Shown piece after piece: positions 21,291-62,018 of a stretch of DNA of 64,000 nucleotides; within the stretch, counting starts at the first letter, position 1; every line of letters starts with the position of its first letter. The notes under the pieces were generated by a model. The model ran no database searches and had not been told where the DNA came from. It saw only the letters and a program-made list of their open reading frames with translations. Source of the DNA: Spirochaetota bacterium (GTDB taxonomy: Bacteria; Spirochaetota; UBA4802; JAFGDQ01); contig JAZDKB010000047.1 of NCBI GenBank assembly GCA_043803405.1, positions 1 through 64,000 on the forward strand, given 5' to 3'. Both the position numbers and the translations under genes were made by a program.

Positions 21291-23711
21291 TTATTCAACG
21301 AATTCGTACGGTCCCCGGTCGACTTCGCTTCCCAAACGTCTCTCATTCCCATCCAAATCTGTGAAAGCGCCTGTTATGCTAAGATCATCGGTTGTAATGC
21401 TGTTGCTGTTTAAATCGACATTTATTGGATAGGTACCGGTTTCCTTATAGGCAGCAGGGTCTCCTGTATTTGTCGCTGGTCCTGATGAACCGAGATGAAG
21501 GTCGAAGCCTGATTCATTAATAAATTGCGGATCACTGTCGTTTGATGAATTGCCGCTGAAATTAATCTCAGTTGAATCGGTTAAATTTCCGGGAGTTCCG
21601 GTTGCGTAAACAATGGAATTATGAACGAGATGCTGGCCAGTAAATAAACTATTTGTTTCATATATCTGGTATTCGCCATTTATATTTGAACCTGTTGATC
21701 CGTTACGCAGGTTTTTCCAAAGTATGTTGTTGTAAAGATACGTAGTAGTACCAGTGTTTTCGGTATATAACACCAAACCTGACGGAGTTGTCAGTGAGGT
21801 GTCCGCGCTGTCATTTCTGAATAAAAGCGAGTTGATAAGGAAGAAATGATGCGGGTAAGTGCTATACTCCTCATGATAAATTGCTCCACCGAAGTTAAAT
21901 ACTATGCTTGTGATTCGATTTCTGATAAAGGATGAACTTATAATTGCGGTAGTTGGCTCTTGAGGTGGACTTGTCAGGCTGGTTAATAAATAAATTGCGG
22001 AGCCTCCATTGCCTGCTGAATTATTGTCAAATATTGAGTTGCTGACAAGCGTTGCTATTGTATTGTCGGTTATGTAATTGCAAATAGCGCCTCCAAAGAC
22101 AGAGGCCGAATTGTTCCGGAAGGTGCATCCTATCACAGTAGTTTTTTTTCCGCCGTATATATAAATTGCCGCGCCGCCTTGCGCGGAATTATCCGTAAAG
22201 CTACAGTTAGTATAAACTTCTCTTAACGAATTATTATAGCTGTAAACGCACCCGCCATTAGTAGTAGCTACACTGTCCACAAATGTGCATCCGGTGAATA
22301 ATAATTCGAAATTACCGGAAGCATAACAAGTCCCGCCCCAATTGCTGGAACTCTTTGAGAATGTGCAGTTAGTATATTCCTCTTTAACTGCATAGTTTGA
22401 ATAAGTTACCCCTCCGGCGTTGACTGCGTTTGAATGGCTGAATAAACAGTTCTGAAATAAAAGATAATTTACCGAACTTGACCGCACTGCGCCTCCCTGA
22501 TCATTTGCATAATTATGATCAAAAGTACAATCAACAAAGGATTCCGGGAACACAGTAGTAAAAGAAAAGACCGCGCCACCGTCACTGGCAGAATTATATT
22601 TAAAGAATGAATTCCTGAATATTGACCTTGATGAGGCTTCGTATACCCCGCCGCCGGATAACGCGTTATTCTGCCTTATGACGCAGTATTCTATAGTTGG
22701 AGAGGCACTGGCATTGTTTATCGCTCCCCCTGAATATGTCGCGGACGCCCCGCCTGTTATAGTGATCCCATTCAGGACAGCCGAATTATCAAGGATAATG
22801 CCGGAATTGTTTATTACGCACTGTGCGTTATCGCCTGCGGATATCCTGTAGCCGTTTGCTGTAGTTGCGGCTGCACCGCTCCCGTCTGGCTGCGTGTTAA
22901 ACGTATCGTCATTATCAAGGTCGCCGTCAAAGATCGTCTCGTTTGCAAACTCCCATGCTTCTGCAGTGCCGTTGCTGTCCCTGTCCGATTTTGCCCTGCC
23001 TGCAGGCGCTGTTTCTGTTCCTGCGAATCCGCCGTAAATCTGTACATAAGGCCTCATGCAGAAATGACGTTCTGTATCCAGTGTTCCAGATATATTTGGC
23101 CATCCGTTGATCGTATCAGTTGAGGGTATATAGCGTCCTGCCATTATCCATACATAGACAACGGCATTGCCGTTGGCAATAGAACAGGCGCGCGCATCTT
23201 CGATCGCTTCCTGCGGTTCATTGTATGCTGCGTAGTCGAACCAGCCCCCGCCGCTGCCGGATGTACCAGTAGGAGATACGAAGAATATTCCATAAGCCCC
23301 GTTCTGAATAACGCCCGCGCTCTCGCTACTTCCTTTGACTGTGCGGATAGTGAAAGTATATACGTCGCCGATTGTCACGGAAGTAAGTGTGTACGTACCG
23401 GTACCTGTGCCTGTACTTGCTAAGTATGAATCGCCGGTAGCTGCTCCTGAATACGAAACATGAATCTGATCGTAATCGCCTGCTGGTTCTGTCCATTCAA
23501 GTGTTATTTGGCTTGGTACTATGGTTGATATCACATTCGTAATGGTTACGTCCGGCATTCCGTTACCGGTTATCTCATTTTTCCACAGGTCGTTCTGGTT
23601 ACAGGAAAAGGCAAAAAAGAGAATTATCATGATGAATTTCTTTATGAATAAACTGCCTGCATATTTATTGTGTAAATCTGGTTTATTAAAATACTTTAAG
23701 ATAAAGGACAT
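21291..23711 (-). CDS. Surface lipoprotein with FN3-like domain and right-handed beta-helix (GGA[I/V], FxxN repeats)
   Basis: Lipobox FFAFS-C; ITLEWTEP...YTFTIRTV; about 10 FxxNxAxxGGA[IV] repeats; C-terminal DLDGNERRLGSEVDRGPYE; likely start ATG 23711 with GGAG upstream. Confidence 0.8.
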   Translation of the reverse strand: MSFILKYFNKPDLHNKYAGSLFIKKFIMIILFFAFSCNQNDLWKNEITGNGMPDVTITNVISTIVPSQITLEWTEPAGDYDQIHVSYSGAATGDSYLASTGTGTGTYTLTSVTIGDVYTFTIRTVKGSSESAGVIQNGAYGIFFVSPTGTSGSGGGWFDYAAYNEPQEAIEDARACSIANGNAVVYVWIMAGRYIPSTDTINGWPNISGTLDTERHFCMRPYVQIYGGFAGTETAPAGRAKSDRDSNGTAEAWEFANETIFDGDLDNDDTFNTQPDGSGAAATTANGYRISAGDNAQCVINNSGIILDNSAVLNGITITGGASATYSGGAINNASASPTIEYCVIRQNNALSGGGVYEASSRSIFRNSFFKYNSASDGGAVFSFTTVFPESFVDCTFDHNYANDQGGAVRSSSVNYLLFQNCLFSHSNAVNAGGVTYSNYAVKEEYTNCTFSKSSSNWGGTCYASGNFELLFTGCTFVDSVATTNGGCVYSYNNSLREVYTNCSFTDNSAQGGAAIYIYGGKKTTVIGCTFRNNSASVFGGAICNYITDNTIATLVSNSIFDNNSAGNGGSAIYLLTSLTSPPQEPTTAIISSSFIRNRITSIVFNFGGAIYHEEYSTYPHHFFLINSLLFRNDSADTSLTTPSGLVLYTENTGTTTYLYNNILWKNLRNGSTGSNINGEYQIYETNSLFTGQHLVHNSIVYATGTPGNLTDSTEINFSGNSSNDSDPQFINESGFDLHLGSSGPATNTGDPAAYKETGTYPINVDLNSNSITTDDLSITGAFTDLDGNERRLGSEVDRGPYEFVE

Positions 23712-24038
23712 AAGCAGCTCCGGTAATAAAAAGTAATTTAGTAAATAAACATAATAATTATCGGCTAATTTGCGTACAGTTATTATAACTATCATTGATC
23801 GGACACTGGACAGATATAACAATTATTTCAATAATCAGTCAAGTTTTATAGTTATTCTATTAAAAATTATAGATATTTATTAAATTATTTGCTTGCAAAT
23901 ATCCAAAGCCTGTGTTTATACTGCGGGATTTTGTAAATTCTTGTCTATCAAATACGCAGTTTGAAATAAATCAAATCTGTTTAACTCACATTCCTGCAAA
24001 ATCAAATCTAATAAAAATAATATTTGGAGGTAATTATT

Positions 24039-24515
24039 ATGCCCCAACAAAATCTTGTTTCAGTTGGTTTTTCAGAGGAAGAAGCCGCGACAATAAACGC
24101 GGCGATTCTTTCACTCAAGGAAACGCTTCTTCCTAAACTAAAGACAATCAATGCGGATGAAAAAAAGGACATCCCCAAAATGGGGGATAAGACAGTGGCA
24201 TTCGTGCAAAAGGCTCTTGAACAGTGCGAAGCCAATCCCGAACTTGTCCCTCCGTTTCTTGATGTTAAAGAGTTCAAAGCCGATTTTGCGGCTGTAGAAA
24301 ATCTGCGTCAGATAGCCGCTTCACTTGGGCAGATCATTGATGGATGTCTGGACACAATAACTCTTGCAGGCAGTGATTCTTTTTCAGCTGCGCTTATGTT
24401 CTATGATGCCATCAAGTCGGCTAAAAAGACAAACGTATTAAAAGCGGGCGCGATATATGAAGATCTTTCCACCAGGTTCCCGGGCGCCAGAAAAAAGACA
24501 CCGGTAGCAGTCTAA
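24039..24515 (+). CDS. Uncharacterised all-helical protein (PKMGDKTVAFVQKAL...AGSD...AALMFY type)
   Basis: RBS GGAGG, 158 aa, followed by a terminator and a periodic array. Confidence 0.85.
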   Translation: MPQQNLVSVGFSEEEAATINAAILSLKETLLPKLKTINADEKKDIPKMGDKTVAFVQKALEQCEANPELVPPFLDVKEFKADFAAVENLRQIAASLGQIIDGCLDTITLAGSDSFSAALMFYDAIKSAKKTNVLKAGAIYEDLSTRFPGARKKTPVAV

Positions 24516-24528
24516 AGAGACTCTTACA

Positions 24529-24569
24529 TTGCCCCTGCAGGTGATTTTATACCTTCAGGGGCGACTTTT
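24529..24569 (+). terminator. Rho-independent terminator
   Basis: GCCCCTGCAGGT-GATTTTAT-ACCTTCAGGGGC then GACTTTT. Confidence 0.7.
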
Positions 24570-24613
24570 ACTATTTAAATACACATAAAAAAAATTCAAA
24601 CTGATATGCAAAC

Positions 24614-24908
24614 AGAGGGATTTCCCTGTTTTATATGGAAAACCGGGTCTCAGAGAAAGGAAAGGCTCTCTTCTATATCCGAATCCGGGTCTCCGGAAGG
24701 GAGCATTCCCTGATTTACAGGGAACGCTGATATTCTTAATAGAGAAATTTCCCTGTTTTATAGAGAATGCCGGTTATCCGAGAGAGGAATTTTCCTGTTT
24801 TACAGGGAAATTTGATTCTCTGAGAGGGAGCATTCCCTGTTTTATAGAAGACTTCGACTCTCTGAGAGGGAAAGCCGGCTCTTCGATAGGGAACATCCCC
24901 TGTTTTGT
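24614..24908. repeat. Degenerate 21-bp periodic array (14 units, mostly alternating A/B)
   Basis: Units mostly start AG(A/G)GA; A units AGGGAGCATTCCCTGTTTTAT, B units AGGGAAAGCCGGCTCTTCGAT-like; (C/T)CCTG core at 24624, 24708, 24751, 24793, 24835, 24898. Confidence 0.85.
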
Positions 24909-25163
24909 ACTCACCGTCTATACTCAGTGACTCAAAATCGGGTATATTTTATTCAAGTTCGGTAATCAGAGAAAGAAAAGGCCTCTATTTTACAAGGAAT
25001 TTAAGGTTTTATAACCGGAATTCATTATATTTTAAATTATCTTTCAATATAATTATTTTAGTTGCTATGTAATCAACTAATTTATATATTCTAATTAGCT
25101 TCAGATGATACATATATATAATTTCATCTGTTCATACAGGAGAACAAAATCCTGTCCCATAAT

Positions 25164-59166: not shown

Positions 59167-60255
59167 TTACCAGACTATGCCTGCGGATAAGCCGAGGGAA
59201 AAGCCTGCTTCCATATAATATACGGCAAACGGGATGTCTATTTTAACAACGCTTAAGTTAAGCCCTATGCCTGCAGTTACTTTGGGATTTATAGTAGTCG
59301 GCTTCTTTTCTTTAGTGCCGCCTTCTATAGTGATGAACCCCGGTTGACTGAGCTCAGAAGCTGTATAATCAGTTGTAACAGGTCCGGCAGCTTGTAATTT
59401 AATTTCCGAAGAACCAAAGTTAAAATCAACTCCTGTGCCAAGCGAAATATTAAGGACGCTGAAAAAAACAAATGCAGTGGAAATATCCACGGGTACCGTA
59501 ATTGTTTCGGAAATAGTTTGAATTTTAAATGATGGATCTATTGTTAAAGTATAAGTAGTATCAACAGTTTCTTGAATTGTTGATTTAAGTATTTTAATTG
59601 CATTTTCGGTTTTACTATAATAAAAGCCTGCTCCTATTGCGAGTCCTCTCCATTTGAAAAGCCCCGGAATTTTGCGCGGCCAGAATATGATCTGGTTTAC
59701 TCCGGCGCCAAGAAGCAGTTCCTTATATGAAAAGCCTTCCATTTCGCTGTTAATATTTTCAAAATTGATAGCGACCTGGCCGTATTTTAAATTTATATAA
59801 AGCCCGGGGAAAATAAAGCCCGCGTTTACTCCTGCGTTTACTGTTGCTATCCCCGCGCCTACACCAAGATACGCGTCGCCATCCCTTTCGATCTTATAGC
59901 GCATGTCTGTAACATAATCCTTATTGTATGCGAACGCAGGAACCTGAAGGCTGACCATCGCACCTGTCATTAAAGCGAACAGAGAATAATCCTGATAACC
60001 TTCAAGTGTGGCAACATTTGTAGAATACGTATTAGCATTTGCAAAACCCTTTGCGAGTTTTTCCTGATTATCATATTTGTCCAACTCAGCCTTAACATTA
60101 GCAAGCATTGTATTCCAGACACCGCTTATTGCAATGTTAAGAGTTCCCGCGCCAACATATTGTGGATATTGGCCTCCTACCGTTACTGCTCCGGCATTTG
60201 TCGCCAGAAGGCAGGCTATGGTTAATCCCGCTAAAGCCCCGAGCAGACTTTTCAT
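59167..60255 (-). CDS. Probable outer-membrane beta-barrel, Lsa36-like paralogue B
   Basis: Signal peptide (AGA); amphipathic strands; C-terminal GLSAGIVW; shares LAKGFANAN, GYQDY and FKWRG with 60718..61830. Confidence 0.7.
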   Translation of the reverse strand: MKSLLGALAGLTIACLLATNAGAVTVGGQYPQYVGAGTLNIAISGVWNTMLANVKAELDKYDNQEKLAKGFANANTYSTNVATLEGYQDYSLFALMTGAMVSLQVPAFAYNKDYVTDMRYKIERDGDAYLGVGAGIATVNAGVNAGFIFPGLYINLKYGQVAINFENINSEMEGFSYKELLLGAGVNQIIFWPRKIPGLFKWRGLAIGAGFYYSKTENAIKILKSTIQETVDTTYTLTIDPSFKIQTISETITVPVDISTAFVFFSVLNISLGTGVDFNFGSSEIKLQAAGPVTTDYTASELSQPGFITIEGGTKEKKPTTINPKVTAGIGLNLSVVKIDIPFAVYYMEAGFSLGLSAGIVW

Positions 60256-60459
60256 AAATTACCCCGGATGAATAATTATTTATATTTTCAGGTGTATAAA
60301 TACGTATTTTTCTTTTTAGAAATAAATCTTTATAAGATAACAATTTTTTGGTGAATAATCAAGGAATAGAAAGAGAAAATTATAATTCAAGCAGAATTTT
60401 TTTGGTCACTTTCCCGTTAGGATTATAAAAGAGATATAGGGATGGATTTGCGGATTTTA

Positions 60460-60710
60460 ATGAGCCTCCGGGTCGCTTAGGAGAGCCTCGGAGGTGGTCG
60501 GGAGCGTCTCCGAGGCTCTCCGGAATGTTAATTGCCACTAAAGAGTGTCTCCGAGTCACTCCGGAGTGTGATTTTCACACTAAAGAGTGTGTCCGAGACA
60601 CTTCGGAGTGTGAATTTGCCATTAAAGAGCGTCTCCGAGACACTCCGGAGTGTGATTTTCTCTCTAAAGAGTGTTTCCGGGACACTCTTTAGAGCCTTTT
60701 TGCTCTAAAT
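60460..60710. repeat. 21/42-bp periodic palindromic array
   Basis: TAAAGAG at 60539, 60581, 60623, 60665; A units GAGTGTCTCCGAGACACTCCG alternate with B units GAGTGTGATTTTCACACTAAA. Confidence 0.9.
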
Positions 60711-60717
60711 TAGCCCT

Positions 60718-61830
60718 TTACCACACAACGCCCGCAGTTAAACCGACTGCGAATGCGTTATCGAACGGGTAGATTATTACAGGAACGTCTATCTTTACTG
60801 CCCAGATGTTTAAGCCAACGCCTGTTGTAATTCGTTCGCGTACCCAGGATGGCTTCTTGTTTTTTGTAGTTGCATCGACTGTATAATTACCCGGTGTAAC
60901 AGTAGGAGCTCCAGCTCCACTTAAATTAGCAGAGACACTTCCATCTGATTCTAATTTTATATCTGTTGATCCAAAGTTTAAGTCAACACCTAGACCGAGA
61001 TTAAAATTAAGCGCCCATAACACTCGTACAGATGTTGTTACGTCAAAAGGAATGGAGTATGTATGCGATTCAACCCCAATAAGAAAAGAGGGATTTAAAA
61101 CTACATTTCCTGTGATTGGTCCTACCGGAGTAATATCTTCCTGAATAGGATCCATATCGATTTTAAGATCAGTTTTATTATAACTATAAATAAAGCCAGT
61201 CCCAAATGATATTCCACGCCATTTAAATAATCCTGCCAAAAATGAAGTTGTTTTAATCCAGGAATAATTAGCTCCAATGCCAACTAAAGTAGTTTTTGTA
61301 GATAGGCCATCAACCAGAGAACTATTTGAAAAATAACCGAATTTCGCATTTAAATAAAGATTGGGATAGATAAATCCTGCGTTAATGCCAACATTTAACA
61401 ATGCAAGGCTTGCGCCAACCCCTGCGTATAAGTCACCATCTTTTTCAACTTTTTTATCTAAGTTTTCGTAATAATCTTTATCATGACTAGGAAGTTGAGC
61501 ACCTACCATTGCGCCTGCTGTAACTGCAAATAATTTATAATCCTGGTACCCCTGAAGAGTACCAGCTTGCCCTGCATAAGCGTTTGCGTTTGCGAATCCT
61601 TTTGCTAAATCAGGCAGGTCGCTGTATTTAAATAATTCATTATATGCTCTATCTATTGCGTCATTGAATTGTAGTTGTAACTCATCATTAACAGTTGTAT
61701 TACTTGTAGTTGGTGGGTTACCGCCTACTGTTAAACCGCCTCCACTTACAGTATACGTATAAGCCTCTACTGTACTAATAGAAAACCAAAGAACCGAAAT
61801 AACTATAAGAATCTTTACCAAACTCTTCAT
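60718..61830 (-). CDS. Probable outer-membrane beta-barrel, Lsa36-like paralogue A
   Basis: Start MKSLVK after GGAGGA; signal peptide (VEA); C-terminal GLTAGVVW. Confidence 0.72.
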   Translation of the reverse strand: MKSLVKILIVISVLWFSISTVEAYTYTVSGGGLTVGGNPPTTSNTTVNDELQLQFNDAIDRAYNELFKYSDLPDLAKGFANANAYAGQAGTLQGYQDYKLFAVTAGAMVGAQLPSHDKDYYENLDKKVEKDGDLYAGVGASLALLNVGINAGFIYPNLYLNAKFGYFSNSSLVDGLSTKTTLVGIGANYSWIKTTSFLAGLFKWRGISFGTGFIYSYNKTDLKIDMDPIQEDITPVGPITGNVVLNPSFLIGVESHTYSIPFDVTTSVRVLWALNFNLGLGVDLNFGSTDIKLESDGSVSANLSGAGAPTVTPGNYTVDATTKNKKPSWVRERITTGVGLNIWAVKIDVPVIIYPFDNAFAVGLTAGVVW

Positions 61831-62018
61831 AAATTCCTCCTGTTTAATAAAATAAAACATCTTTCTATTATATAATTTATTGGCCTGATAATCAAATAAT
61901 ACAAGAAAAAAATTATAATATTACTTTACTTGTATTTATTTTATTATAACTTATGGGAAATATTTCAATAATTATTTTAAGTGCATTGTTAAATATCATC
62001 AGGAATAAAAGTTAAATA

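Follow-up and report, generated by a model that had tools for sequence, protein, structure and literature searches.

A 158-residue protein encoded in the window, by which we mean the whole 64,000-nt stretch of spirochaete DNA analyzed here, belongs to an unnamed family whose genes are commonly followed by an array of 21-bp imperfect palindromes. We propose that this protein is a sequence-specific double-stranded DNA-binding dimer that tiles its own array, and that gene and array form a patchily distributed selfish cassette that spreads. We assign this reading as a whole a probability of roughly 0.6. One component, the sequence-specific binding of the dimer to its own array, appears considerably firmer and is quite probable. 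The window contains the following features.

23893–23922, + strand: candidate sigma70-like promoter (TTGCAA-18-TATACT), proposed solely from its conservation
23926–24005, + strand: 5′ leader with complementary ends (GATTTTG...CAAAATC), common to the paralogs in the same genome and locus L005
24026–24030, + strand: ribosome-binding site GGAGG, 8 nt 5′ of the ATG
24039–24515, + strand: gene for the 158-aa all-helical protein of the unnamed family, from its ORF and predicted structure
24529–24564, + strand: GC-rich hairpin, likely an intrinsic terminator, from its fold energy
24621–24957, no strand assigned: 16 phased 21-bp imperfect palindromes, from A/B alternation, a +1 slip at 24747 and the family grammar
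60466–60704, no strand assigned: gene-less 21/42-bp array that starts 13 nt after a stop codon and is a sister of a paralog's array

A preliminary description of this region had proposed a gene with a strong ribosome-binding site, then a terminator, then the array. The position of GGAGG bears out the first of these. The terminator stands in part: the hairpin is strong (−22.1 kcal/mol, z = −5.9) and has a modest U-rich tail, but it was not among the matches of a consensus terminator scan, and we consider its assignment as an intrinsic terminator likely. Sequences resembling the promoter candidate lie 5′ of three of the four paralogs in the same genome, and sigma70-like matches occurred at chance frequency in the promoter scan. 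The leader, which follows a promoter-like sequence in the loci that share it, folds weakly (z = −1.6) and was not found by eye in the remaining family loci, is possibly a lineage-specific regulatory RNA. The neighbors of the gene in the window encode a surface protein and a membrane protein; the former, divergently oriented at 21291–23822 (− strand), has 843 residues with an FN3-like domain and repeats like those of Chlamydia PMP proteins.

Autocorrelation of positions 24590 to 24990 yields an identity of 0.515 at lag 42 and 0.397 at lag 21, compared with 0.257 ± 0.023 at lag 21 in 1000 shuffles of the same segment, in which no lag exceeded 0.354. The excess at lag 42 over lag 21 confirms the alternation of A and B units noticed originally. 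Phasing resolves six units (24621–24746), a +1 slip at 24747, which had been placed near 24740, and ten further units (24748–24957), after which a second slip and two to three weak units extend to about 25020. Thus, the initial count of 14 units is right as far as 24908, but the array is longer. Used as a query, the array DNA gave no match in five relatives, and the DNA contigs of two runs did not extend over it.

The association between gene and array extends well beyond this locus. The preliminary description had stated that the family is often trailed by periodic tracts, and when lags of 6 to 70 were compared over the 500 nt 3′ of the stop codon, the best lag was 21, 42 or 63 in 65 of 78 genome loci and in 55 of 65 metagenome loci. 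Identity of at least 0.5 at these lags was found downstream of 67 of the 78 genome loci, one of which (L007) is inflated by Ns, and upstream of only 3 of 78; the corresponding metagenome values are 57/65 and 5/70. Loci with short downstream DNA or without a stop codon were left out, as were L003 and L004 (reverse orientation) from the 78-locus count. For more distant sets of falling score, lags of 21, 42 or 63 were best in 38/55, 16/32 and 7/19 loci, and in 77/120 of a further set; these sets include some loci counted earlier. The link between gene and array weakens in distant family members.

Family arrays start a median of 75 nt after the stop codon and have a median length of 232 nt, and a hairpin lies 3′ of the stop codon in 53 of 79 family loci. 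The view that the period is held while the sequence drifts is well supported, since 584 of 600 unit steps are exactly 21 and the unit sequences differ greatly from locus to locus. At a few Bacteroidota loci (L037, L051), a 21/42-bp array is located 5′ of the gene instead of 3′.

A period of 21 nt equals seven codons, and one plus-strand frame is free of stops over most of the target array, features that would fit a decayed gene for a heptad-repeat protein; the array might otherwise be an unrelated, hitch-hiking minisatellite. As had been observed at the outset for the heptad frame, however, the unit-register frame of the target array is interrupted by a TGA and by the slip, and the ORF list holds no frame of at least 70 aa with a start codon in the array. 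Mismatches in the family arrays carry no codon-phase bias (p = 0.55), arrays without any open frame (20/54) occur at the chance level of 18.4 ± 2.9, and slips of ±1 or ±2 are tolerated. These results uphold the proposed constraint at the level of nucleic acid and count against a decayed gene, which, like an unrelated minisatellite, is also contradicted by a palindromic grammar that is kept across proteins of 30–50% identity and by the residue–base covariation presented below. We regard these explanations as largely refuted and exceedingly improbable.

Before counting, arrays that scored below 25, contained N or had fewer than six units were left out, as were proteins more than 80% identical. 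The units are imperfect palindromes, in that 43 of 54 arrays lie above a column-permuted null. Palindromy of this kind could serve either DNA or RNA. If the transcribed array formed duplex or multi-hairpin RNA that is bound or processed by the protein, the pair might resemble a type III toxin–antitoxin pair in reverse or a guide array, and gene-less (solo) arrays would be retrocopies. The target array does fold well as RNA (z = −3.6 versus shuffles), as any palindromic array would, and the available text of a report on Bacillus coagulans satellites describes these as transcribed (PMC8625621). On the sense strand, however, G-T exceeds A-C in 37 arrays and the reverse is true of 29 (p = 0.39), so there is no G-U excess. 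Compensation within units is marginal at one dyad (3598 versus 3551 ± 27, p = 0.04) and absent at the junction dyad (3407 versus 3410 ± 30). Moreover, a hairpin usually separates gene and array, and Rfam returned a single, chance-level match (E = 0.68). We therefore interpret the repeat unit as a double-stranded site of two-fold symmetry. With the covariation of a protein residue and an array base added to the missing G-U excess and the marginal compensation, a DNA binding lattice is favored over a multi-hairpin RNA, a distinctly improbable alternative; base-specific readout of a duplex also suits DNA better than RNA.

When 66 non-redundant arrays were centered by their dyads alone, a common pattern emerged, NTYSnWnYTY-N-RARnWnSRAN, with T(−2) in 53, A(+2) in 55, T(−9) in 44 and A(+9) in 46 of the 66. 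Leave-one-out fits to this grammar were obtained for 56 of the 66 arrays, and all four paralog arrays of the target's own genome conform. Fits fall to 19/38 for more distant arrays, and a divergent subfamily has a motif of its own, which is the same in this spirochaete as in two genomes of the Marinifilum breve order. Arrays beside three other helical genes in the same genome do not fit (p = 0.44–0.99). An array at C19:331775–332007 of this genome fits weakly (p = 0.03).

Of the evidence available, the covariation of protein residue 43 with array base −3 points most strongly, if indirectly, to a protein that reads its array. In a mutual-information scan of 66 loci, residue 43 ranked top (p = 0.12 under a cluster-aware null). 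Among 8721 tests on 103 loci, the pairing of Gln43 with T(−3) ranked first (21/25 versus 17/78, p = 3.6e-8), and His43 coincided with C(−3) in 16 of 18 cases. This rule was taken post hoc from all 103 rows, from which L123, a misaligned long branch, was left out here and in everything later. The Gln/T prediction was then written down before new data were considered, namely 35 fresh loci less than 80% identical to the earlier ones. It held in 9/11 versus 7/24 (p = 0.005), and in 7/9 versus 7/20 among fresh loci below 65% identity (p = 0.04); His43 accompanied C(−3) in both fresh instances (2/2). Independent pairs drawn from a 138-row tree, by which the influence of kinship is reduced and still present, gave 8.1 for and 1.1 against (median p = 0.039).

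Residues 33–53 form a putative recognition segment, with residue 43 as its candidate specificity position. Contacts of Gln with A and of His with G are textbook examples, and the two pairings would match them, as T(−3) and C(−3) place A and G, respectively, on the opposite strand. Partial-Mantel peaks at residues 33–53 and 141–154 are small (r = 0.07–0.09), and other windows rank above them in the held-out set. Two other candidate rules failed in the fresh loci: hydrophobic-43/A(−5) held in 1/3 and Gln43/G(−4) in 4/11.

Structure prediction combined with a Foldseek search, as suggested in the preliminary description, provided a confident all-helical model but no fold match. The AlphaFold2 monomer has five helices, one of 55 residues, and no strands (pLDDT 89.7). 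Prediction of a homodimer gave an ipSAE of 0.75, whereas the highest value among three controls was 0.00; the pLDDT was 86, and runs agreed in at least 96% of contacts. This mark was attained by 20 of 30 solved homodimers, as against 1 of 23 monomers, figures to be taken only as a rough guide here. The long helices lie antiparallel in the predicted dimer, with residue 89 contacting 103–107, and 56–62 and 79 contacting 115–122. Because of this arrangement, each end of the dimer pairs the N-terminal ERxxLPKMGDK region of one chain with C-terminal helices from its partner. It is in these two regions that the conserved basic residues are found, together with Tyr122, which is 98% conserved. The protein is thus predicted to be an antiparallel, rod-shaped homodimer with two-fold symmetry. 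Neither PDB Foldseek nor BFVD returned a fold match, which leaves room for a remote fold and is no proof of a new one, and the best hit of a VIA-wide fold search (Z = 6.2, rmsd 2.7, 48 aligned) amounts to no match.

Considered together, the predicted dimer and the symmetric unit suggest how binding might occur. One dimer would occupy each 21-bp palindromic repeat as double-stranded DNA. Each dimer end, composed of residues of about 42–62 from one chain and 115–150 from the other, would read a half-site in the major groove, and the conserved residues at this putative reading end are R42, K47, K51, K58, K126 and R146. From 38 helical residues, we estimate that the two heads would be ~55–60 Å apart, and because of this spacing we place the center of the dimer at the unit junction. 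By this length estimate, the dimer would probably span the junction and read positions +3 and +18 (15 bp, about 51 Å), and neighboring dimers would abut at the on-base dyad. The length of the dimer would then hold the period to two helical turns even as unit sequences diverge. Coated arrays would likely pair and then either recombine or convert, such that units are shuffled and solo copies are seeded, with DNA cutting performed either by the protein itself, perhaps through the near-invariant Tyr122, or by host enzymes. The protein-coated array would likely be a selfish element copied to new intergenic sites.

The target's genome (G000, 3.98 Mb), a spirochaete-like one whose nearest named protein hits belong to Spirochaetota, contains 44 tracts at lags of 21/42, whereas other lags of 15–30, or twice those values, give 1–17. 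Of these 44 tracts, 32 fall outside long ORFs. Its four family paralogs are each followed by their own 21-periodic tract, and one of them (C18) is N-terminally deleted, with roughly 63 codons missing from its start. A gene-less sister of the target array lies at C15:125614–125941; the two arrays have exact in-register matches as long as 23 nt, and their units are ordered differently. Likewise, the array of a second paralog (C6:97630–98148) has sisters at C7:56662 and at 60466–60704 of the window. The latter is absent from the orthologous spacer in two genomes of the same genus, where other hairpin repeats are present instead. The window's spacer separates tandem paralogous genes (59167–61860; 362 and 380 aa) of secreted or outer-membrane appearance, the 362-aa one without a Pfam match.

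Four further genomes, each queried with one gene-linked array, all contained extra copies. Solo copies of a gene-linked array were found in four of the five genomes checked (G000, G219, G221 and G834), and the fifth (G833) has a 5′-truncated cassette. The fetched flanks of 13 of the 14 copies examined contain no family gene, and the remaining copy, the only G833 copy examined, retains the 3′ end of the gene. Cassette relics include L452, with the 3′ end of the gene, and L456, with the hairpin. Gene loss can thus also make solos, and it explains some of them; from the sequence relationships described, copying of arrays to new sites is likely as well. In G834, all four aligned solos share a distal end with the gene-linked array and differ in proximal extent, a pattern that would suit an RNA-level process but is missing in the target/C15 pair. 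Across three gene/solo sets in G000, solo and gene-linked copies have no common terminal repeats or flanks, and no target duplications are evident.

The same linkage, dimer and covariation data would fit a role that benefits the host, architectural or regulatory, in which dimers bind arrays as nucleoid-organizing, anchoring or transcription-roadblock sites and solos are selected rather than selfish. Solos are intergenic and often lie shortly 3′ of stop codons, and the accessible text of a study of constant-length repeats suggests nucleoid roles for them (PMC8161180). The distribution of the family argues otherwise: it is present in 4 of 41 relatives, reaches up to 10 matches per genome, includes decayed copies such as C18, and has no conserved neighbors. 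We consider a host-beneficial role rather unlikely and prefer a selfish cassette. A stand-alone, patchy, multi-copy cassette might also act as a defense tripwire, wherein the array sequesters a toxic or signaling protein that is freed when a phage degrades host DNA. PADLOC, however, gave no match for three family members, and the protein has neither a recurring neighbor as partner nor a recognizable effector domain or nuclease family match, which makes a tripwire very unlikely.

The family is large and unannotated. A profile search recovered 4013 clusters at 50% identity. Its loci are spread over Spirochaetota, Bacteroidota, Bacillota, Pseudomonadota, Verrucomicrobiota, Planctomycetota and others, and no match was found in Pfam (148 members), NCBIfam, PHROGs or named Atlas clusters. 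Members are near neutral (median net charge −1), which counts against the binding model. Within the phylum, 5 of 201 genomes carry the family, the target's own included; in four genome groups centered on Bacteroidota loci, the counts are 27/201, 28/201, 8/151 and 22/61. The 103 nearest proteins fall into 91 clusters, none of which recurs as a partner. IMG/VR viral contigs and 50,697 phages contained no match, and 72,556 plasmids contained one weak match. A suspected link to HagB/DUF6261 is unsupported by Pfam matches and the literature. Among 8000 candidates scored, no longer or fused forms appeared (weak evidence). At L196:881–3405, the family gene is fused in frame to an upstream 480-codon ORF, and nearby are an apparent ATP-grasp enzyme and a repeat-containing precursor peptide that we take to be microviridin-like.

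Centromere-binding proteins of plasmids and their centromeres, of which ParR/parC is one example, offer an instructive comparison. As described in the accessible portions of reports on SopB/sopC (PMC2910045), TubR (PMC6009700) and ParG/parH (PMC3130281), a small dimeric protein is encoded beside its own phased sites, as here, where the dimer is predicted. Likely cooperative coating is probably how the array pair works as well. Unlike those systems, the present family has no conserved partition ATPase/GTPase neighbor (ParA/ParM/TubZ), is almost absent from plasmid and phage collections, and has dispersed solo arrays. As for an RHH or HTH fold, the model has no strands and found no counterpart by Foldseek or the VIA-wide search, which leaves room for a remote one.

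In REP/BIME sequences with their RAYT (HUH tyrosine) transposases, cognate palindromic repeats flank an autonomous gene and also occur without it at scattered intergenic sites; these systems are patchy, with several paralogs per genome that each have their own motif. The family resembles them in its patchy cassette and dispersed, gene-less cognate repeats. However, its protein is all-helical and has no near-invariant His, the Pfam matches of 148 members include no Y1_Tnp, and its repeat units are strictly phased in tandem and lack the G-U signature of single-strand hairpins. The arrays of type III toxin–antitoxin and TIGR-Tas systems are located upstream of a nuclease gene and function as structured or guide RNA. 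These likewise combine one gene with a tandem non-coding array and a hairpin between them, whereas the arrays studied here are downstream and have no G-U bias, no variable spacers and no nuclease match.

The arrays themselves have a known counterpart. Non-coding tandem repeats of constant length (20–21 nt) occur in Bacillus, with variable sequences, several species-specific families per genome and a length that the authors noted to equal two helical turns (Subirana & Messeguer 2021, PMC8161180, accessible text). The arrays studied here are alike in their non-coding character, fixed 20–21-nt period, variable sequence and multiple families per genome; the accessible text mentions neither a linked gene or cognate protein nor a palindromic grammar or specificity residue, and it calls such fixed-length, variable-sequence satellites an open puzzle. 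The literature search, which mostly lay outside supplements and subscription journals, found no description of the gene/array pair. Thus, 20–21-nt satellites were known, and the dimer prediction, the grammar, the specificity residue and the solo copies are new here.

For that puzzle, the family offers a candidate for the cognate protein, an explanation of the period from geometry and a switch of specificity at a single residue. If binding is true, the family would add a new fold to those that bind DNA sequence-specifically, and its many protein/site pairs, orthogonal by nature, could serve as scaffolds that tile DNA or as roadblocks; repeats might also have a new way of spreading through bacterial genomes. 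A more far-reaching proposal, with the odds somewhat against it, is a new class of minimal selfish element, in which a helical dimer with a new DNA-reading fold and a simple residue-to-base code would polymerize on its own 21-bp lattice and, possibly through Tyr122, copy or recombine the arrays into new chromosomal sites. It would be one of a larger group of helical protein/array pairs that account for the fixed-length 21-bp satellites of bacteria.

Three small predicted-helical genes in G000 without a family match (C45:2719–3420, C9:161307–162440 and C2:39556–40400; 119, 243 and 127 aa) each adjoin their own 21/42/63-bp array outside the family grammar, and the array beside the C9 gene has a solo sister at C30:31369. 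These pairs may represent further protein/array families. A common superfamily with the 119-aa C45 family is unsupported by sequence, as profile comparison gave a probability of 0.2%. Three more 21-bp array families had no linked gene in the assembly: one at C26:10178, C33:40934 and C6:47181, a second at C10:141610, C20:103591 and C44:26782, and a third at C15:16503, C9:160613 and C9:221734. Finally, C7:56295–56860 combines an IS200/RAYT-like tnpA fragment, a hairpin and a very homogeneous 21-bp array related to that of the C6 paralog, which makes it possible that HUH transposases are involved in moving arrays.
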